From an uncultured Muribaculaceae bacterium (GTDB lineage: Bacteria > Bacteroidota > Bacteroidia > Bacteroidales > UBA932), in assembly GCA_964616865.1 (NCBI GenBank), contig CAZTUQ010000001.1:8713-72712 (forward strand): a stretch of 64,000 nucleotides of DNA, written 5' to 3'. The translations under genes and the position numbers were made by a program. Each line of letters starts with the position of its first letter. Position 1 is the first letter of the stretch. Below are positions 2,992 to 24,946 of the stretch, piece after piece. The notes under the pieces are model-generated. The model had not been told where the DNA came from. It was given only the letters and a program-made list of their open reading frames with translations, and did not search any database.

Positions 2992-3828
2992 ATGAAGAAA
3001 TTGTTTGCAACATTGGCATCCCTCGCACTATCGGCAGGACTCGCATTCGCGCAGGATCTCGCCCAGGCTACAGAGATTTACAATAATGGTGCTACAAATC
3101 TCAATCTCGGAGACAAAGCCGCTGCATTGGAGAATTTCAAGAGTGCCCTCTCCATGGCCGGAGCCCTTGGAGAAGATGGAGCAGACATTGTCAGCAACTG
3201 CAAGGAGGTCATCCCCAACATCATGTTCTCCATCGCAAAGGATGAGATCAAGGCCGAGAAATTCGAAGCGGCAATCGCAGCCCTCAAGGAAGTCGTGACA
3301 GTCGCCAAGGAATACGGCGCAGAGGATACTGCCAAGGATGCAGAAGAGCTCATCCCCTCCGTATTCATACAGCAGGGCAACGAACTGATGAAGGTCAAGA
3401 ACGCAGCAGGTGCTGCCGCAGCATACAAGAGCGCATTGGATATCAACCCTGCCAACGGCAACGCCGCTCTCCGTCTCGGACAGGCGCTGAATGCAGCAGG
3501 TGACATCGAGGGCGCAATCGCAGCTTACGAGACAGCCGCTGCAAACGGCCAGGCCACAGCAGCAGGCAAGCGCATCTCCACAATCTTCCTCAAGAAAGCA
3601 GCCACATCCCTCAAGGACAAGAGTTTTGAAGCGGCAGTAGAGGAAGCCAACAAGGCAAACTCCTACTCCGAGTCCGCCAATGCTTACAAGATTGCCGGTA
3701 CTGCCTACAATAGCCTTGGCAACAAGGAAGAGGCTATAAAGAACCTCTCCAAATATCTGGAAATGTCCCCCAATGCCAAGGACGCAGCACAAATCAAAGC
3801 CGCAATCGAGGCATTGAGCAAGAAATAA
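2992..3828 (+). CDS. Exported tetratricopeptide-repeat protein
   Basis: ATG at 2992 preferred (MKKLFATLASLALSAGLAFA, SPI signal). Ala-rich helical TPR repeats (AYKSALDINPANGNAALRLG; YLEMSPNAKDA). Stop overlaps the next ATG (TAATG). Confidence 0.85.
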   Translation: MKKLFATLASLALSAGLAFAQDLAQATEIYNNGATNLNLGDKAAALENFKSALSMAGALGEDGADIVSNCKEVIPNIMFSIAKDEIKAEKFEAAIAALKEVVTVAKEYGAEDTAKDAEELIPSVFIQQGNELMKVKNAAGAAAAYKSALDINPANGNAALRLGQALNAAGDIEGAIAAYETAAANGQATAAGKRISTIFLKKAATSLKDKSFEAAVEEANKANSYSESANAYKIAGTAYNSLGNKEEAIKNLSKYLEMSPNAKDAAQIKAAIEALSKK

Positions 3829-5678
3829 TGAGGAATCTTGAACTCCTCGCCCCGGCGAGAAACAAAGACATCGGCATCGCGGCTATTGACTGCGGTGCCG
3901 ATGCGGTTTATATCGCAGGTCCAGCATTCGGCGCACGCCACGCTGCCGGCAACAGCCTTGAAGACATAGCTGAATTGTGCCGGTACGCGCACCGCTTCGG
4001 AGCAAGAATCATGCTCACCGTCAATACTATAATAAGTGACGATGAGATGGACGAGGCGCACAGGATCATGGCAGACGCACAGGCTGCCGGAGTGGACGCA
4101 TTCATCGTCCAGGACACGGCCCTGATGTGCCTCCCAGACATTCATGTCCCTATCCACGCATCGACGCAATGCGCAATCCGCAACAAGGAGACCGCCAAAT
4201 GGTACGAATCTCTCGGCTGCGGCAGGATAGTGCTGGAAAGGCAGTTGCCGCTCGCCACCGTCAGAGAGATAGCAGAGAGCGTAGACTGCGAAATAGAGTG
4301 CTTCGTGCATGGCGCACTGTGCGTCTGCTACAGCGGACAATGCTATCTGTCAGAGCATATTGACAGACGCAGCGCCAACAGAGGCAACTGCATGCAGGCG
4401 TGCCGTTCGCTCTACGACCTTGTGGACGACAACGGCAGGATAATTGTCAAGGACAAGGCCCTGCTCTCTCTCAAAGACCTGAACCTGTCGGATCGCATAG
4501 GCGAACTTGCCGATGCCGGTGTGGACTCTTTCAAGATAGAAGGACGCCTCAAGGGCATATCGTATGTCAAGAACATCGTCCGCGCATATTCCATAGCCTT
4601 GGACAAGATAGTGGCCCGCAGCGGAGGCAAGTACAGGAGGGCATCATGGGGAGAAATCTCCGGAGGATTCCAGCCGGAGACGGACAAGACCTTCAACCGC
4701 GGATATACACAACTGTACATAGACGGCACAAAAGGCAAATGGGCATCCATGGACTCTGCCAAATCCATTGGAGAAGCCATAGGGACTGTCGAAAGCATAC
4801 GCGACATCGGCCATTCGAATATCGAGATACGCATATCCGGGAATAACAGCGGAATCTGCCTCACCAACGGAGACGGATTCGCATTCATCCGAGGCAGGGA
4901 GACCGTAGGATTCCGCGGAGATGTGTGCAACGGGAACACAATCAGGTGCAAGGCTGTCCCGGGGCTAAAACGCGGTGTTACGCTGCTACGCAATATGAGT
5001 GCGGAGTTTGAACGCCGGATAGAGAACGGAAAGTGCATCCGTGAGATCCCCGTGTCCGTCAGTCTGAATATTCACAGCAAGGGCGGAGACAGCTATGTAT
5101 TTACCGCTACGGCAAAGAGCCAGGACGGCAGGACATCTTGCGGGACATGGCAGGCCACAGCACAGGAGGCGCAGCAGAGGGACAAGATGATCTCGACTAT
5201 CACCGCGCAGCTCGGCAAGAGGCATCTCCACTACTCCATGTCTCTCGAAGACCTGAATATACAGGCAGACGGAGTGCCGTTTGTCCCTGCGTCTTTCCTG
5301 AACGGGATACGCAGACAACTTGCGGAAGCCATAGACACCATGCCGGTAAACTCTTTGCCTATAAACAGCGGCAAGCCAGACGGCACATTCCGCATACAAG
5401 GCACATTGACTTACAAATCAAATATATACAATACAGTGGCACGCAATCTGGCATTGTCCAGAGGAGCCATCAAGGCTGACGATGCGTATGAAATCTCTCA
5501 TGTAGAAGGAGCAGAACTGATGCGCAGCAAGTATTGCATCAAGCACGAGCTCGGCATGTGCCCTGTACATCAGGGCGCAAGGCAGACAGGGCCTCTGCAC
5601 CTGCTGAACAACGGGCGCCGCCTCAATCTCGCATTCGACTGTGCCGCATGCGAGATGACGGTTTCCGCCGGCGAATGA
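3828..5678 (+). CDS. rlhA: U32 family peptidase-like protein with C-terminal DUF3656-type region; probable 23S rRNA 5-hydroxycytidine synthase (RlhA type)
   Basis: ELLAPA...GADAVYIAGPAFGAR, FVHGALCVCYSGQCYLS, RSANRGNCMQACR, SFKIEGR motifs; 616 aa long form. Confidence 0.8.
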   Translation: MRNLELLAPARNKDIGIAAIDCGADAVYIAGPAFGARHAAGNSLEDIAELCRYAHRFGARIMLTVNTIISDDEMDEAHRIMADAQAAGVDAFIVQDTALMCLPDIHVPIHASTQCAIRNKETAKWYESLGCGRIVLERQLPLATVREIAESVDCEIECFVHGALCVCYSGQCYLSEHIDRRSANRGNCMQACRSLYDLVDDNGRIIVKDKALLSLKDLNLSDRIGELADAGVDSFKIEGRLKGISYVKNIVRAYSIALDKIVARSGGKYRRASWGEISGGFQPETDKTFNRGYTQLYIDGTKGKWASMDSAKSIGEAIGTVESIRDIGHSNIEIRISGNNSGICLTNGDGFAFIRGRETVGFRGDVCNGNTIRCKAVPGLKRGVTLLRNMSAEFERRIENGKCIREIPVSVSLNIHSKGGDSYVFTATAKSQDGRTSCGTWQATAQEAQQRDKMISTITAQLGKRHLHYSMSLEDLNIQADGVPFVPASFLNGIRRQLAEAIDTMPVNSLPINSGKPDGTFRIQGTLTYKSNIYNTVARNLALSRGAIKADDAYEISHVEGAELMRSKYCIKHELGMCPVHQGARQTGPLHLLNNGRRLNLAFDCAACEMTVSAGE

Positions 5679-5682
5679 CAGT

Positions 5683-6870
5683 TCAGCGCACCTCGAATGT
5701 AAGATCCACATCCCCGAAGTGCTCCGTAGTCCCACTGTAGTTTTCGAAATAGCGGCTCGAAAGAGCACCGCGCCACACAATGTCGTCCTTGGTATACAGA
5801 GGCAGTTCCACATTGATACCGTAACTCTTGGATTTGATCTTGACCACGGCATCGAGTTTCCAGGATGTCCTGGTGCCGCCGTCATTCTCCGTTATCATAA
5901 AGCCGAAAGTCTCGAGCTGCGGAGACCAGTCGGATATGAGCATGGCATTGAAAGGAATCTTCTGTCCGAGCTGCTTGCGCTTGACGACAATCATAAAGTC
6001 TGTCACTGACGGAGTATACAGGGCCAGTTCCGCCTCTGTACTTGCCGTAAACCTCTCTACAGCACCGCATTTGACAAAGAACTCGCTCGCGCCGCTGAAC
6101 CACGGGTCATAATTGCGCAACATCGTGAAATCCTTGAGTACCAGACTGCGAAAATCGTCATCCGCGGCCTTGGAGGATATTGTAACATCACCACCGCTCC
6201 CCCATTCGGGATGCTCGCGCCGCAACATCTCCAAAGATTCGTATCCAGAATCGTCATTGGTATTGACTACCCACACAGGCCTCTCCATAGCCATCTGCTC
6301 GTCTACAGTCACCGTTCTGACAGAGCGTCCGCCGTCTGGCTGCTCGATGATTTCATAGCCGACATTGACCGTGCTCTCCCCTCCAGGATTGAATGTCACG
6401 ACAGGCAAGGTCTTACCGTCCCAAGAGTCCGCATACGGCCAGTATATCTGGACATCTGACGCCGCGAGCACATCAAGCCTCGCCTCGACCTCCCTCTCCG
6501 CTGCCACAGCATCCGCTGATTTAGTAAGAGCCACATTCTGACGCACATACTCACGGATAAGGTCTTTCATCGGTCTCGGATAATGTCCTGCAACCCTGGT
6601 CTGCGAATCCGAAGCACGGACGCCTGCCCCGGGCACCGTCAGCAGATCTTTCATCATGTACTCTTCGTCATAGCCGTTTTCGGAAGAACATCCGACAGCA
6701 TCATGCACTTCCTGCACCTGGTCGGTCCCTATCGGGATAGCCGACAGCATCCGTGCTACATCTTCCAGAGAAGCAAATTCATAGTCAGGCGTGATCTCTC
6801 TCTCGCCGACAGTACTGCACCCTGCGACAATCATCGCAGCGGCGGCAAATAATGTAAATGTCCTGCGCAT
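5683..6870 (-). CDS. Hypothetical lipoprotein (possibly DUF3103-like)
   Basis: Start at 6870: MRRTFTLFAAAAMIVAGC lipobox, acidic residues after the Cys. About 395 aa; no confident family. Confidence 0.7.
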   Translation of the reverse strand: MRRTFTLFAAAAMIVAGCSTVGEREITPDYEFASLEDVARMLSAIPIGTDQVQEVHDAVGCSSENGYDEEYMMKDLLTVPGAGVRASDSQTRVAGHYPRPMKDLIREYVRQNVALTKSADAVAAEREVEARLDVLAASDVQIYWPYADSWDGKTLPVVTFNPGGESTVNVGYEIIEQPDGGRSVRTVTVDEQMAMERPVWVVNTNDDSGYESLEMLRREHPEWGSGGDVTISSKAADDDFRSLVLKDFTMLRNYDPWFSGASEFFVKCGAVERFTASTEAELALYTPSVTDFMIVVKRKQLGQKIPFNAMLISDWSPQLETFGFMITENDGGTRTSWKLDAVVKIKSKSYGINVELPLYTKDDIVWRGALSSRYFENYSGTTEHFGDVDLTFEVR

Positions 6871-20555: not shown

Positions 20556-20640
20556 GCCTTGGTGGTGGAATGGTAGACACGAGGGACTTAAAATCCCTTG
20601 GGCAGTAATGTCCGTGTGAGTTCGAGTCTCATCCGAGGCA
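20556..20640 (+). tRNA. tRNA-Leu (anticodon TAA)
   Basis: Acceptor stem GCCTTGG/CCGAGGC; D-arm GTGGAATGGTAGACAC; anticodon stem AGGGA/TCCCT with loop CT-TAA-AA; long variable arm; T-arm GTGAG-TTCGAGT-CTCAT. CCA not encoded. Confidence 0.97.
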
Positions 20641-20643
20641 CAA

Positions 20644-22662
20644 TCAATTGGTCTTATGCCTGTCAGTACTGAAATCAATCTGACGGGCATTGCTTTTTAC
20701 CCTGCCGCCAAAACGTCCGAATGTATATGTCACTCCTATCTCTACCCTGGATATGGGAGTCATGGCAGTTGTCAGCACTTTATATCCCGAAGCCTCTATC
20801 TCACGCACATCCTTGCGGTACTTTTGCCACGGCCTGTCCACCGAGAGATACAAGTCGAAATCACCCAATTCCTGTGATATGCCGACAGCTCCGCGCAGGA
20901 TATTGTGAAATCTTGTCGCCTGTGCATCAAAGGTCTTGGCCATATCGGGGTTGCACCATGTGGCATTTACCGACAATTCTGCGCCCTCCCACAGATCGGC
21001 ATCAAGCACGAAATGGACAAAGAAATCAAACGACTGTACCGGTTCACCGCCCCAGTCATAGCGGTACCAGGCGCACCCGGGAGACAGATCAAGGCTCAGA
21101 GAGCCGAGCGGACGCCATATAGCGCCTGTACTGGCACGCCACGAGCGCATTTTGCCGGAGTTGGCATAGGATGACAGGATTGAGCCATCATCGGAGACAG
21201 TAACTCTTCCATACGCTCCGTCATCGCTCCAGTTACGCGCAATCATGGCGTTGAAGGACAGTTTCATGCCACGCATATATCTGTATACAAACACGGCATT
21301 GTTACTGACCTGCGCCTTGATCGCACCATTACCCTGCACAACGGTACCAGCCTTGGAAGAATCCGCATAATTGTTGAGCCAGTCCAGATCGGGGCGGAAA
21401 ATGGAACGTCTGTACGAGATACGAAAGCGGCTCGACGATGAAGCAAACCAGTCCACCGCGGCATTGCCGCTGATATTGCCATACCGGCGAATGTCTTCTG
21501 TCCTGTCATAACTCATCCCCGCAGACATGCGGATGCGCCCGGGACTATATGAGACATTGCCCTCCACGGAGGCAATCCTCTGCGGGTAATCCAGCAAGGA
21601 CATCCCTGCAGACTCGCTCGCATAATGGCGATACTTGTAGCCAGCCCTCATGTAATAGTTGAATGCCGGTGAAAGCCTGTGGGAAAAATCGGCATTGATG
21701 CCCGATTCAAAGGACCGGGTCACATTGTCTGACAGCATACCGTCTATATCTCTGACATTTGAAGTCCTCCCTCCGGCAAATCCGGCCTGCACGGTCAGCA
21801 GTTTCTTGCCCCCACCGGCAAAATCCCTCTGCCATGCGAGGCCTGCATTCCAATTGTCCGCCACGGCATCCAGCGAAGAGACGGCAGTCTCCGGATAAAA
21901 ATACGAACGGGATTCCTGCTCTGCATCACTATGCCCATATCCTGCGTCCAGAAACAACACATCTTTACTGCCTATGTCATAACTGGATCTCCATGTCAAG
22001 GCGTGGCCCAATGCGGTATCTTTGGTTAAAGTATCATAGGCCTCGTAAACGACCGACGGGTCAGTGAGCGACTCGCGGACAGAACTCTCCATAGAGCGCC
22101 TCGCATCCCTGTATGAGGGGCTGTAGTGCACGGATGCGATTGTACGCCCGAGTTTGGCAGTAGCCCTTACTGCCGCATCCGCGCCCTCTCCGTCAGCCCA
22201 GTCAGCATCAAGCCGCCCGGACACAAAATCCATCAGATCCTCGTCCGTCCGGATGTCAAGCACCGCGGAATATGAGGCATAACGGCCTGTTGGTGCCGTA
22301 TTAAGGCTGACGGAAGAGAGATTGCGCCCCCGCAGCAACTCGGAGACATAATCGAGATTGCCGTCCTCAAGAATGAGACTGCGGCGTCCGTTCACTGTAA
22401 TGGCAAAACTGCCTGTCCGCACTGATACTGATTTGCCGAGAGGATCGACACGCACCAGAGGCAGGCGCTGCAGTATATCCTTGAGAGGGAGTTCCCGCAG
22501 CAGCGAATCCCCTGCGACATCAAGCGTTATCTTACCCTTGTCCATCGTAAGGCCGGAGCCTTTGGCACTGACCACGGCCGCATCTATAACGGTCCCGTCC
22601 TGCGCCAGCGCCAAAGTACCCAGCGATAATACGATACTACTCAACAATAGTCTCTTCAACAT
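20644..22662 (-). CDS. Outer-membrane beta-barrel / TonB-dependent-receptor-like protein (OMP_b-brl_3-like)
   Basis: Signal peptide from ATG 22662 (MLKRLLLSSIVLSLGTLALA); TonB-box-like IDAAVVSAK; degenerate plug (DILQRLPLVRVD...ITVNGR...APTGRYA); alternating beta-strands; C-terminal IGVTYTFG. Confidence 0.75.
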   Translation of the reverse strand: MLKRLLLSSIVLSLGTLALAQDGTVIDAAVVSAKGSGLTMDKGKITLDVAGDSLLRELPLKDILQRLPLVRVDPLGKSVSVRTGSFAITVNGRRSLILEDGNLDYVSELLRGRNLSSVSLNTAPTGRYASYSAVLDIRTDEDLMDFVSGRLDADWADGEGADAAVRATAKLGRTIASVHYSPSYRDARRSMESSVRESLTDPSVVYEAYDTLTKDTALGHALTWRSSYDIGSKDVLFLDAGYGHSDAEQESRSYFYPETAVSSLDAVADNWNAGLAWQRDFAGGGKKLLTVQAGFAGGRTSNVRDIDGMLSDNVTRSFESGINADFSHRLSPAFNYYMRAGYKYRHYASESAGMSLLDYPQRIASVEGNVSYSPGRIRMSAGMSYDRTEDIRRYGNISGNAAVDWFASSSSRFRISYRRSIFRPDLDWLNNYADSSKAGTVVQGNGAIKAQVSNNAVFVYRYMRGMKLSFNAMIARNWSDDGAYGRVTVSDDGSILSSYANSGKMRSWRASTGAIWRPLGSLSLDLSPGCAWYRYDWGGEPVQSFDFFVHFVLDADLWEGAELSVNATWCNPDMAKTFDAQATRFHNILRGAVGISQELGDFDLYLSVDRPWQKYRKDVREIEASGYKVLTTAMTPISRVEIGVTYTFGRFGGRVKSNARQIDFSTDRHKTN

Positions 22663-22876
22663 ACCGTCCTCCTTCATTTACAAGCGAATCCACACAGCCA
22701 CAGTTCGTACATGTATATATCAGTTTTTTTCCATTAAATTCAAGATCATCAAGAGTATATTCATGCCCACAGTATGGACAAAATTTTATCACCTCTTTCG
22801 CTTCAAACTTTCTGGCAAATGCGACCAATGACATGGTTGCCAGTGCCGCCATAATGATAAAAATTTTCTTTTTCAT
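22637..22876 (-). CDS. Small secreted protein with two CxxC pairs (zinc-ribbon/rubredoxin-like)
   Basis: 79 aa; classic SPI signal MKKKIFIIMAALATMSLVAFA; CPYC-x20-CTNC; A-rich start context; its stop overlaps the start of the barrel gene. Confidence 0.7.
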   Translation of the reverse strand: MKKKIFIIMAALATMSLVAFARKFEAKEVIKFCPYCGHEYTLDDLEFNGKKLIYTCTNCGCVDSLVNEGGRYVEETIVE

Positions 22877-22904
22877 GATAAAAATAATTTAGTTATCAAT
22901 GTTG

Positions 22905-22932
22905 ATAAAAAACAGCCCTCCTAAAAAGGAGG
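22905..22932 (-). terminator. Probable intrinsic terminator after the M56 gene
   Basis: CCTCCT-TTTT-AGGAGG stem followed by GCTGTTTTTT on the minus strand; short stem. Confidence 0.4.
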
Positions 22933-22956
22933 AAACATAGATTTCTATTTAATTGA

Positions 22957-24033
22957 TTATTCTGGCAGCCAGCTAAGGTGACAGCCTTCGGGCAGAGCCG
23001 TGTCTACCAGGACGGCCCCTTCCCTGCCCTTCTCGCCGAACACACGAACCGCCTCCCGAGGCTCCAAGACAATGACCGTCTTGCCGTGCATTTCCCCGAA
23101 AACAAAATCATCAAAACTCCTGACTTCCCCACCGGCAAGCACGAGAGGGTCCCGCGGACAAGGTTGAACCCGAGAGGCATTCACATAGACCGCAAGAGCG
23201 GCAAGCGGTATAATCAAGGCGTAAGAAAGCAACTTCACAGGCTGAGAACGCCTGCAGGACATCATCCTGATCCGGCTGCGGAGTTCACTGCCGCCAAGGC
23301 CGCTCGTTATGTCATATCCGCAACGCTCCGCAACAGTCTTGATGAGCATATACTGATACTCGCGGACATCTGTACCGCCTTTCAAGACAGCGGTATCCGC
23401 CTCATATTCATGCAATGTACGCAGGTCAGCACGCATCAGCCAGATTACCGGATTGAACCACTGGACTATCGTATAAATGTCCATCAAAAGCACATCGACC
23501 GAATGTCGGAATGATGCGTGCGCCTTTTCATGGTCCAAAACCGCCTTGCTGCCTATATCCTTTCGGGAGACCACCACATAGCGCATCCAATTGAATGGAG
23601 ACATATTGTCATCTCCCGTACATACTACAGTCCAGCGCTTTCCCCTCTCCACCACGCTGCCACGGTATATAATACTCATGACGCCACGATACGAGCACAA
23701 TACCCGCACCAGGACCACCACCGCACCTATGCAATACAGATAAAACGGTATGTAATACATAGAGAACGGATTTGCCTGCATGACAATGTGCCTGGACAAT
23801 ACGACAGATTCCTCATGACGACTGCAGGCAATGCCTGCAACGACATCCAGCGGTGCAACTCCCCTATGCACATGAAAAAACAGCGGCAGCACAGCGACCA
23901 GGACAGGCACTGCAAGGAGCATCACTCTATTGACACGATGAAATGTCTCCCGCCCCATCAGCAGACGGTAGACGAAGTAGAATGCGGTGAGTATCACCGC
24001 CACCTTGACCTGGTATTCTACAAAAGGAAACAT
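22957..24033 (-). CDS. M56 family (BlaR1/MecR1-like) membrane metallopeptidase with C-terminal TonB-receptor-plug-like segment
   Basis: LLMGRETFHRVNR, SPFNWM, VLDHEKAHASFRHSVD (HEXXH), QWFNPVIW, HEYEAD; C-terminal PLVLAGGEV...FGEKGREGAVLV. Confidence 0.88.
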   Translation of the reverse strand: MFPFVEYQVKVAVILTAFYFVYRLLMGRETFHRVNRVMLLAVPVLVAVLPLFFHVHRGVAPLDVVAGIACSRHEESVVLSRHIVMQANPFSMYYIPFYLYCIGAVVVLVRVLCSYRGVMSIIYRGSVVERGKRWTVVCTGDDNMSPFNWMRYVVVSRKDIGSKAVLDHEKAHASFRHSVDVLLMDIYTIVQWFNPVIWLMRADLRTLHEYEADTAVLKGGTDVREYQYMLIKTVAERCGYDITSGLGGSELRSRIRMMSCRRSQPVKLLSYALIIPLAALAVYVNASRVQPCPRDPLVLAGGEVRSFDDFVFGEMHGKTVIVLEPREAVRVFGEKGREGAVLVDTALPEGCHLSWLPE

Positions 24034-24042
24034 CCCACTCGA

Positions 24043-24089
24043 TAAAAATATAGGAGAGACGCCGCCGAAGCATCTCTCCTACAAATATA
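24043..24089 (-). terminator. Intrinsic terminator after tatC, overlapped by a -7 box for the M56 gene
   Basis: Minus strand: TATATTTG (24082-24089), then a 12-bp stem TAGGAGAGATGC-TTCGGCG-GCGTCTCTCCTA, then TATTTTT. Confidence 0.6.
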
Positions 24090-24145: not shown

Positions 24146-24946
24146 TCATTCTTTGACAACGAGTATAGACAGTTCATACAGCATATAGAGCGGCAGGAAC
24201 ACGACCATGAGAGTGAACGGATCTCCAGAAGGAGTAATGGCAGCCGCCAATATCAGCAGCACCGTCACAGCCACCTTGCGGTACTGCCTCAGGAAATCCT
24301 TGTGCAGTATGCCCATGGATGAGAGCACCCACGCCAGCATAGGTATCTCGAATACAATGCCCATGACGAATACAAGCGTCAGGAAATTGCTCATATACGA
24401 GTTGAGCGAAATCTGATTGACAATCGAGCCACCCACCTGATATTCAGTCAAAAAGCGGAACGTCAACGGAAACACCACCGTATACCCGACCGCACAGCCT
24501 ATATAGAAAAGCAGACCTCCGAATACGAATGCCCTCTTGACCCCACGCTGCTCATTGGGGAAAAGCGCGGGACGCACAAAGCGCCAGATTTCATAGATTA
24601 CATAAGGGAATACCAACAGCAATGACAGCCAGAATGAGGTCGTTATATGCGTCAGGAACTGCGATGCCACATTGATATTGATAATGTCCACATGGAAATC
24701 CGAATTGCTGAAATCGGGCAGCAGAGGATTGCCACTGCCGCCAAGTCCGGACAACCATTTATATAGGAAGAAATCTCCGTCTGTCGCACCGAGAATAAAC
24801 GAATCGAAAATCTTGGGCATCGCTATAAAGCAGCCTATAAGAACGACTACCAGCACCGCCAAGATACGAAACAGAGACCACCTGAGTACTTCCAGATGGT
24901 CCCAAAATGTCATCTCGTTCTCGGATGTATTTACATCCACAGACAT
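24146..24946 (-). CDS. tatC: Twin-arginine translocase subunit TatC
   Basis: EMTFWDHLEVLRW, YEIWRFVRPALF, FEIP, AAAITPSGDP. Confidence 0.96.
   Translation of the reverse strand: MSVDVNTSENEMTFWDHLEVLRWSLFRILAVLVVVLIGCFIAMPKIFDSFILGATDGDFFLYKWLSGLGGSGNPLLPDFSNSDFHVDIININVASQFLTHITTSFWLSLLLVFPYVIYEIWRFVRPALFPNEQRGVKRAFVFGGLLFYIGCAVGYTVVFPLTFRFLTEYQVGGSIVNQISLNSYMSNFLTLVFVMGIVFEIPMLAWVLSSMGILHKDFLRQYRKVAVTVLLILAAAITPSGDPFTLMVVFLPLYMLYELSILVVKE

Follow-up and report, generated by a model that had tools for sequence, protein, structure and literature searches.

The 64,000-nucleotide stretch of DNA analysed here (the window, at its full length) lies on contig C1 of an uncultured Muribaculaceae genome (G000; an assembly of 1.82 Mb in 58 contigs, 98% complete), and the locus in question comprises three co-oriented minus-strand open reading frames (ORFs) flanked by tatC and a tRNA-Leu(taa) gene: an M56 metalloprotease gene, a gene for a small exported peptide with a putative zinc ribbon, and a gene for an outer-membrane barrel of the OMP_b-brl_3 family. 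Within this trio the peptide gene and the barrel gene recur together in some gut Bacteroidales, and sequence comparisons support the view that they are a conserved functional pair, whereas the M56 gene appears to be a bystander. The explanation we tentatively prefer is that the unit is a two-gene cassette made up of a cognate exported mini-protein and a TonB-dependent barrel, with export of the mini-protein across the outer membrane as its most likely role. Literature searches on PF14905/OMP_b-brl_3, on zincophores in Bacteroid-, and on zinc ribbon together with TonB returned no description of such a ribbon-barrel pairing, and the cassette is undescribed in the literature searched.

A preliminary description of this locus, drawn from the sequence itself, had treated all three genes as one module. 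Its account of the gene content holds: three co-oriented genes lie between tatC and tRNA-Leu, the first encodes an M56 peptidase, the second a 79-aa secreted peptide recognisable by its signal-peptide features and its four cysteines in a CxxC...CxxC arrangement, and the third a barrel resembling TonB-dependent receptors, identified by its OMP_b-brl_3 match, whose gene overlaps that of the peptide by exactly 26 nt when read from ATG 22662. The explanation preferred here can also accommodate its further proposal of a barrel that binds the peptide or exports it.

A recurring pair of peptide and barrel genes

Four such pairs are present in the genome: that of the window on C1, others on C3 and C16, and a divergent fourth on C30 (Table 1), so that a peptide gene stands upstream of four of the seven OMP_b-brl_3 barrels. 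Sequence identity among the C1, C3 and C16 pairs amounts to 30-33% for the peptides and to 42-43% for the barrels. The C30 peptide has a signal peptide and the pattern CxxxCxxC...CxxC, and its 744-aa barrel carries CarboxypepD_reg and OMP_b-brl_3 domains; this pair is situated directly downstream of an AbiEi/AbiEii-type toxin-antitoxin module (L116 1435-3107). The pair was also found in other Muribaculaceae genomes (G132, G150, G333, G272) and on metagenome contigs (L026, L030, L034, L074), where its neighbours include ribosomal operons, ZIP, NlpC/P60 and GT2 glycosyltransferase genes, and tRNAs. Because the neighbours differ at every locus, the peptide and barrel genes are the only constant.

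The preliminary description had also supposed small exported peptides to be frequent neighbours of OMP_b-brl_3 barrels, and this holds for particular sub-lineages only. No CxxC...CxxC ORF was located upstream of any of 30 canonical OMP_b-brl_3 barrels (the best-scoring barrels of 30 other Muribaculaceae genomes) in a scan that recovered 11 of 11 known pairs where the barrel was correctly picked, and ribbon peptides as a general trait of these barrels are thereby ruled out. In a tree of 38 barrels the peptide-linked ones cluster, with 7 label changes against a shuffled mean of 15.4, a value matched in none of 200 shuffles, and the Sec-type barrels, those whose peptide bears a Sec signal, form one clade (SH-aLRT 100). 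The ribbon family itself is small and mostly known from metagenomes. A HMMER scan of 1.84 billion representative proteins yielded about 20 proteins of 71-91 aa with the architecture of the window peptide; its larger matches were generic multi-ribbon or leucine-rich-repeat (LRR) proteins, so informative domain fusions were discarded as a line of evidence. A word-index protein search gave only 6 barrel clusters and 11 Sec-type peptide clusters, and scans with barrel patterns returned few loci (3 in genome contigs and 1, ambiguous, in metagenome contigs). A peptide family widespread in Bacteroidales is ruled out by a profile scan of 401 genomes across that order, which outside G000 found only generic cytoplasmic zinc ribbons, none of them beside a barrel.

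The peptide begins with MKKK-IFIIMAALATMSLV-AFA/RK, that is, with a basic region, a hydrophobic stretch and an AxA site (signal peptide, residues 1-21), and is a predicted Sec-exported protein, presumably cleaved after AFA at the position of the slash; F20 and A21 are invariant in alignment A3, and the signal-peptide region is helical in the AlphaFold2 (AF2) model. The two CxxC knuckles of a Cys4 site, the hallmark of a zinc ribbon, are apparent in the sequence, the alignment and the model, and alignment A7, which comprises 24 homologues, shows no variation at C33, C36, C56 and C59. In the model the signal helix is followed by a ribbon core with three short strands (pLDDT 74-79) and by a C-terminal tail that is acidic and disordered; the mature ribbon peptides in general are mostly acidic, with net charges from 0 to -15. 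A profile built from the peptide alignment matches solved zinc ribbons, RPA12, Rpb9, LysW and rubredoxin among them, at E 1e-4 to 1e-2, all cytoplasmic or nuclear proteins judging by their names; all matches to Pfam zinc-ribbon models fall under the cut-offs, and nothing significant came out of a fold search started from the peptide model (best E 0.18). A Cys4 zinc ribbon in an exported protein is itself unusual, and the cysteines of such a protein could form disulfides instead of holding zinc. Bacteroides lacks a general disulfide-forming machinery (PMC6671954), and for this reason the four exported cysteines could stay reduced and bind metal.

The barrel gene is taken to start at ATG 22662 (MLKRLL..., the start called in an orthologue), although there is an alternative in-frame ATG at 22677. 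The protein matches OMP_b-brl_3 (PF14905) with 60.1 bits and E 2.6e-16 against a gathering cut-off of 27 bits (57.9 bits in the genome-wide profile search). Its AF2 model (pLDDT 68.9, pTM 0.64) has an alpha/beta plug-like N-terminal domain (residues ~38-139) followed by a large barrel, and the top 50 Foldseek matches in the PDB are all TonB-dependent transporters (TBDTs), at E 1e-18 to 1e-15 and TM ~0.45-0.55. These include ChuA, BtuB, OprC, FrpB, ZnuD and Cir, none of which stands out, and identity to the PDB TBDTs is 11-14%. The model, of moderate confidence, thus supports a plugged TBDT fold, in which the 22 strands expected of such a barrel could not be reliably counted. In the Pfam searches OMP_b-brl_3 was the only match of the window barrel, with none to Plug (PF07715) or TonB_dep_Rec (PF00593) and none to the N-terminal 153 aa even at E <= 10; the GG-type relatives described below do match PF00593, so that for this copy the model points to TBDT fold membership and not to the canonical TBDT Pfam family. 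The window barrel is also without the N-terminal CarboxypepD_reg domain of its paralogues. Just past its signal peptide stands the motif VIDAAVVSA, which resembles Bacteroidota TonB boxes and which we take to be a candidate TonB box. A similar consensus, LLDA(A/S)VVSA, appears in the barrel alignments A2, A4 and A5, which cover paralogues and orthologues, and V31 is invariant in all three. One barrel paralogue (C16 8567-10986) is an orphan: no ribbon gene precedes it, although one does so in L030, its nearest relative. Its N-terminal coding region contains a run of N bordered by duplicated sequence, which is probably a scaffolding artefact.

The two genes overlap or abut in most Sec-type loci, with overlaps of 4 to 50 nt in the other pairs (L005, L026, L030, L034, L070, L074, L116), and in the window a GGAGGA is located 4 nt ahead of the barrel ATG. 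The overlap suggests that translation of the two genes is coupled. The peptide ORF is unlikely to be a mere regulatory upstream ORF, given that its cysteines and cleavage site are kept across paralogues of 23-35% identity, and that notion is further weakened by the GG-type versions, which are separate genes as far as 232 nt from the barrel. Ribbon genes have a third-position G+C content (GC3) of 0.32-0.34 (0.338 in the window; likewise L005 6648-6884 and L006 7287-7541), against 0.56-0.60 in the overlapping barrel genes and 0.632 +/- 0.059 in the long ORFs of the genome, just 0.27% of which fall below 0.40; the ribbon genes are lower than the barrels in 11 of 12 loci of other organisms as well, and selection for an unstructured A/U-rich mRNA may be the cause. 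The 1.82-Mb genome contains 13 copies of the pattern AATAATCA[ACG]T. Of the four ribbon genes, three have one such copy 85-143 nt ahead of them, in the same orientation (the window copy of Table 1, one near 17026 on C3 and one near 20161 on C16); the pattern may be a common operator, promoter or other cis-element of the pairs. An Rfam search for an RNA element in the leader returned only tRNAs.

Some homologues of the ribbon peptide (P0016 and the G282 peptides) carry, in place of the Sec signal, a double-glycine (GG) leader ending in ...KGG, for example ...LSEKEMREVKGG, on a homologous ribbon core. This swap of leaders on one and the same core implies that the exit of the ribbon from the cytoplasm matters, with the barrel as its constant companion. 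The GG-type family is the larger one (41 clusters), and its operon consists of a TPR/DUF6377-like protein (~545 aa), two GG-ribbon genes, an OMP_b-brl_3 barrel (~795 aa) and a C39-ABC exporter, or peptidase-containing ABC transporter (PCAT), an arrangement kept in four independent locus groups on Bacteroidales metagenome contigs (L072, L108-L110, L111-L113, L114). The PCATs of these groups, 729-732 aa long with C39, ABC_membrane and ABC_tran domains, are encoded directly after the barrel gene, and G282 has two tandem pairs of GG-ribbon and barrel beside a stand-alone C39 peptidase (E 9e-34). A GG leader together with a nearby PCAT is confined to these relatives, the window peptide being of the Sec type. 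The GG operons contain no membrane-fusion or TolC-type gene, which leaves the barrel as their only outer-membrane component. By itself the GG operon may constitute a system for the signalling or secretion of peptides.

Table 1. Features of the locus in the window, and the four peptide and barrel pairs of the genome
Feature	Position	Strand	Remarks
tRNA-Leu(taa)	20556-20641	+	convergent with the barrel gene, 2 nt past its stop codon; boundary of the cassette
Barrel gene, 672 aa	20644-22662	-	Pfam OMP_b-brl_3
TonB-box-like motif VIDAAVVSA	22564-22590	-	just past the barrel signal peptide; read from the sequence
Overlap of peptide and barrel genes, 26 nt	22637-22662	-	from ATG 22662; ATG 22677 would give 41 nt
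Peptide gene, 79 aa	22637-22876	-	ORF; weak zinc-ribbon Pfam matches
Cys4 knuckle core	22700-22780	-	CPYC (C33-P-Y-C36), 19 residues, CTNC (C56-T-N-C59)
Terminator-like hairpin TCCTCC-TTTT-TAGGAGGG with T-run	22906-22933	-	between M56 stop and peptide start; also placed at 22916-22933
Motif AATAATCAAT	22952-22961	-	85 nt upstream of the peptide ATG
M56 metalloprotease gene, 358 aa	22957-24033	-	Pfam Peptidase_M56
Terminator-like hairpin with T-run	24049-24083	-	3' of tatC, 5' of M56 start
tatC	24146-24946
Pair on C1 (window)			upstream neighbour M56
Pair on C3			upstream neighbours rpsJ and a tRNA
Pair on C16			upstream neighbour a divergent kinase gene
Pair on C30	L116 3444-3707 (peptide), 3697-5931 (barrel)		11-nt overlap

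The neighbouring M56 gene

The M56 protein matches Pfam Peptidase_M56 (PF05569) at E 5.8e-10, with 39.3 bits against a cut-off of 31, and has the HExxH motif of an M56 zinc protease in the form HEKAH (residues 168-172), four predicted membrane helices and a periplasmic tail that ends ~70 aa past the last helix. It is without a C-terminal penicillin-binding (transpeptidase-like) sensor domain, and the NCBIfam model blaR1_generic matches only its protease part, with 30.8 bits against a cut-off of 400; the protein is best classed as a member of the M56 family and not as a BlaR1 equivalog. The tail had been described as plug-like. A weak resemblance does exist, as its best non-self tblastn matches in the genome are four SusC-type plug motifs (27-35% identity over ~51 aa), each at E 0.26-0.8 and none significant alone, but Pfam Plug does not match the tail even at E <= 10.

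An M56 gene and a BlaI-family gene (the latter PF03965, E 2e-21) are each present exactly once in the genome, on separate contigs. On C11 the lone BlaI gene is convergent with a gene for a 348-aa protein (the two at L013 5637-5996 and 6310-7356) that resembles serine hydrolases or class-C beta-lactamases and in which an SxxK is visible; beta-lactamase-like genes of a similar kind adjoin some OMP_b-brl_3 barrels in relatives (L051, L055, L059). The homologues of M56 in the relatives are longer proteins of 420-725 aa, with similarity confined to residues 1 to ~290. At 10 of their 11 loci a BlaI gene is directly upstream, ending just ahead of the M56 start, and at none of the 11 is there a related barrel or ribbon peptide within 1.5 kb. 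Conversely, an M56 gene beside the pair is limited to this species and those nearest to it (L007-L008, with M56 91% identical, and L036, counted here on its 96%-identical barrel), and outside the closest species no pair has an M56 neighbour, nor do the other three pairs of the same genome. The order tatA-tatC-M56-peptide-barrel is kept only in the sister species, to which TatC is 99%, the barrel 96%, M56 91% and the peptide 85% identical, and this is best seen as plain synteny.

Terminator-like hairpins also part the M56 gene from both of its neighbours (Table 1), and together with the gene-neighbourhood evidence they lead us to reject a three-gene operon. The hairpin on the tatC side is strong, with 15 base pairs and a T-run; it lies ~15 nt ahead of the M56 start codon and just downstream of TATATTTG, and could be the terminator of the tat operon or a 5' element of the M56 gene. 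Of what the preliminary description had proposed, the union of the three genes in one module, with M56 as a third member that senses the peptide, has not survived, and the co-occurrence that it would have predicted across genomes is seen for peptide and barrel and not for M56. On the neighbourhood comparisons the M56 gene is most plausibly that of a BlaR1-type sensor-protease parted from its BlaI partner, outside the conserved unit. The wider lesson is that adjacency to an M56 sensor-protease is no evidence for a signalling module.

tRNA genes adjoin several cassettes, downstream in the window and upstream on C3 (L005 7080-7153) and in G150 (L038 ~80-150), which may be chance or the trace of past mobility.

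Direction of transport and competing explanations

In the explanation preferred here, the first gene would yield a precursor of ~80 aa that its leader takes out of the cytoplasm, by Sec in the window and by a GG leader and a C39-ABC exporter in the homologues, and cleavage of the leader would release an acidic mini-protein of ~50-65 aa built on the Cys4 zinc ribbon. The second gene, translationally coupled to the first, would supply a plugged barrel of TBDT fold with a TonB box. The ribbon protein would serve its own barrel as a dedicated ligand, which would make every one of the genome's four pairs a cognate pair of cargo and transporter. Once in the periplasm the ribbon protein would cross the outer membrane through that barrel at the expense of TonB energy, and its role outside the cell would lie in metal binding, signalling or antagonism. 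Export is favoured as the direction because the cassette encodes only a signal for crossing the inner membrane and one outer-membrane protein, because the GG operons, with their PCAT, barrel and cargo, resemble a full export route in two steps, and because there is a precedent in Oar-PopC, where a TBDT secretes a protein in a TonB-dependent manner (PMC6434023). In a broader form, about which we are rather doubtful, certain Bacteroidales OMP_b-brl_3 barrels would be dedicated TonB-powered exporters, each for a single small zinc-ribbon protein encoded immediately upstream, and hence a minimal 'two-partner' secretion system on the TBDT fold, with cargo delivered by Sec or a C39-ABC exporter and with diversification into several cognate pairs per genome.

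A number of observations weigh against this reading. TBDTs normally import, and the conserved TonB-box-like motif is therefore as compatible with import as with export. A peptide is missing for three of the seven OMP_b-brl_3 barrels of the genome, for five barrels of a sister clade and for one of the Sec-type clade (the genome's own C16b), so barrels of this kind can evidently work without a peptide encoded in cis. The window barrel is missing the Oar-like N-terminal domain, zinc binding by the peptide is predicted from its motif alone, and the overall pLDDT values of 62 for the peptide model and 69 for the barrel model are of moderate confidence. Finally, bacteroidetocin loci reach extracellular activity with a PCAT and no barrel (PMC6671954), and a barrel is thus not obviously needed for export.

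Two rivals have to be taken seriously. The first is that the ribbon is a secreted protein metallophore, which would use its four cysteines and acidic tail to bind zinc or some other thiophilic metal, and which the cognate barrel would recapture, metal-loaded, for import. This has in its favour the canonical direction of TBDTs and the conservation of the TonB-box-like motif, the invariance of the Cys4 site and the mostly acidic charge of the mature peptides, and the retention of four cognate pairs in a reduced 1.8-Mb genome is more in keeping with the uptake of nutrients than with warfare. The structural matches of the barrel include ZnuD and OprC, although they score no better than other TBDTs. 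In one lineage the pair is directly preceded, on the same strand, by the gene of a ZIP-family metal transporter (L034 1919-2671, G132), the sole contextual hint at a function in metal handling, but this neighbour is limited to that lineage, and the pairs have no common Zur or Fur box, only the unexplained AATAATCA motif. Moreover, the Sec-type peptides have no encoded outer-membrane route except the barrel itself, the peptides evolve faster than the barrels (85% against 96% identity between sister species), and a PCAT accompanied by divergent GG peptides in tandem is more reminiscent of a locus for a bacteriocin or pheromone. We consider a metallophore somewhat unlikely.

The second serious rival, which we judge to be unlikely, holds that the ribbon never leaves the envelope, and is instead a partner on the periplasmic face or plug of the barrel, a CusF-like mini binding protein or metallochaperone, or a stoichiometric subunit of the kind seen in LptE-LptD and SusD-SusC. 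Such a role would need no extra export step, since Sec, like a PCAT without fusion and outer-membrane partners, delivers to the periplasm, and a Cys4-Zn site could persist in a periplasm that has no general system for disulfide formation (PMC6671954); the overlapping genes would also suggest stoichiometric co-synthesis. It is harder to reconcile with GG leaders and PCATs, which are typical of released peptides, with two tandem divergent peptides per barrel in the GG loci, with the fast divergence of the peptides, and with the close relatives of the barrel that have no peptide.

An antagonistic peptide locus, similar to those of microcins or bacteroidetocins and with the barrel as immunity determinant, self-receptor or exporter, seems less probable again. 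The GG leader, the PCAT and the tandem four-cysteine peptides do recall the loci of class II microcins and bacteroidetocins, divergence among the peptides is fast, and the C30 pair adjoins an AbiE toxin-antitoxin module; on the other hand, there is no thiol oxidoreductase, immunity or small transmembrane-protein gene as in bacteroidetocin loci (PMC6671954), the mature peptides are mostly acidic and not cationic, and the Sec-type pairs occupy stable chromosomal positions beside housekeeping operons, with four copies kept in a reduced genome. Trans-envelope signalling by all three genes, in which M56 would sense the peptide or the barrel through its plug-like tail, is very improbable: although the genes are adjacent and co-oriented in the window and the sister species, the tail weakly resembles a SusC plug motif and an M56 without an adjacent BlaI could have been re-wired, M56 is absent at every other pair locus, its homologues keep company with BlaI and never with barrel or ribbon, and hairpins set it apart on both sides.

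Comparison with known systems

The M56 gene shares with BlaR1/MecR1-BlaI/MecI a protease domain with HExxH, four predicted membrane helices, a BlaI-family repressor elsewhere in the genome and, in the relatives, the blaI-M56 gene order; it differs from BlaR1/MecR1 in the want of a penicillin-binding sensor domain, in its extracytoplasmic tail of ~70 aa and in being unlinked to BlaI.

The cassette itself recalls several pairs of a secreted ligand carrier and a TBDT, namely the hemophore HasA with HasR, methanobactin MbnA with MbnT, and the zincophores of type VI secretion systems (T6SS) with their TBDTs, in that a small ribosomally made secreted binder has a dedicated TonB-dependent receptor as its genetic neighbour or as its working partner. 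Unlike these, the Sec-type cassette is without export machinery, modification enzymes or a metal-responsive regulator, its metal binding is only putative, and neither HasA nor MbnA is homologous to it. TBDTs are the main nutrient gates of gut Bacteroidales, and almost all are regarded as importers of small molecules or glycans. If the explanation preferred here is true, a barrel with its own exported mini-protein would be a compact natural test case for whether TBDT-fold barrels can secrete proteins, and it also bears on whether protein metallophores or peptide signals of ribosomal origin are in use among gut anaerobes. The system should be easy to dissect, with leaders and barrels that can be swapped, because the same ribbon core follows either a Sec signal or a GG leader.

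Loci of bacteroidetocins (class IIf) and class II microcins (PMC6671954, PMC12219008) resemble the GG ribbon loci in their precursors of <100 aa, GG leaders of ~15 aa, four cysteines, nearby PCAT and occurrence in gut Bacteroidales, a likeness judged on these features. The ribbon loci differ in having a TBDT-type barrel and no thiol oxidoreductase or small transmembrane protein, in the CxxC...CxxC zinc-ribbon pattern of their cysteines, and in their mostly acidic mature peptides; the window version, moreover, uses a Sec signal peptide and no PCAT.

Oar-PopC of Myxococcus xanthus, the only case found in the literature of a TBDT-fold barrel that secretes a protein, is set apart by several features. 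Here the cargo would be a ribbon of ~6 kDa encoded directly upstream in a gene that overlaps that of the barrel, the window barrel is without the N-terminal domain, and export is a prediction; the likeness to characterised TBDTs is limited to the general fold, at the low identities to PDB TBDTs given above. In Myxococcus a TBDT with a TonB box and the ExbBD-TonB complex are required for secretion (PMC6434023). Most members of the barrel family share Oar's N-terminal CarboxypepD_reg domain, which dominates in the TBDTs of Bacteroidetes (PMC6434023), and in both systems a plugged TBDT with a TonB box, in our case a candidate one, is tied to a protein that reaches the periplasm first.

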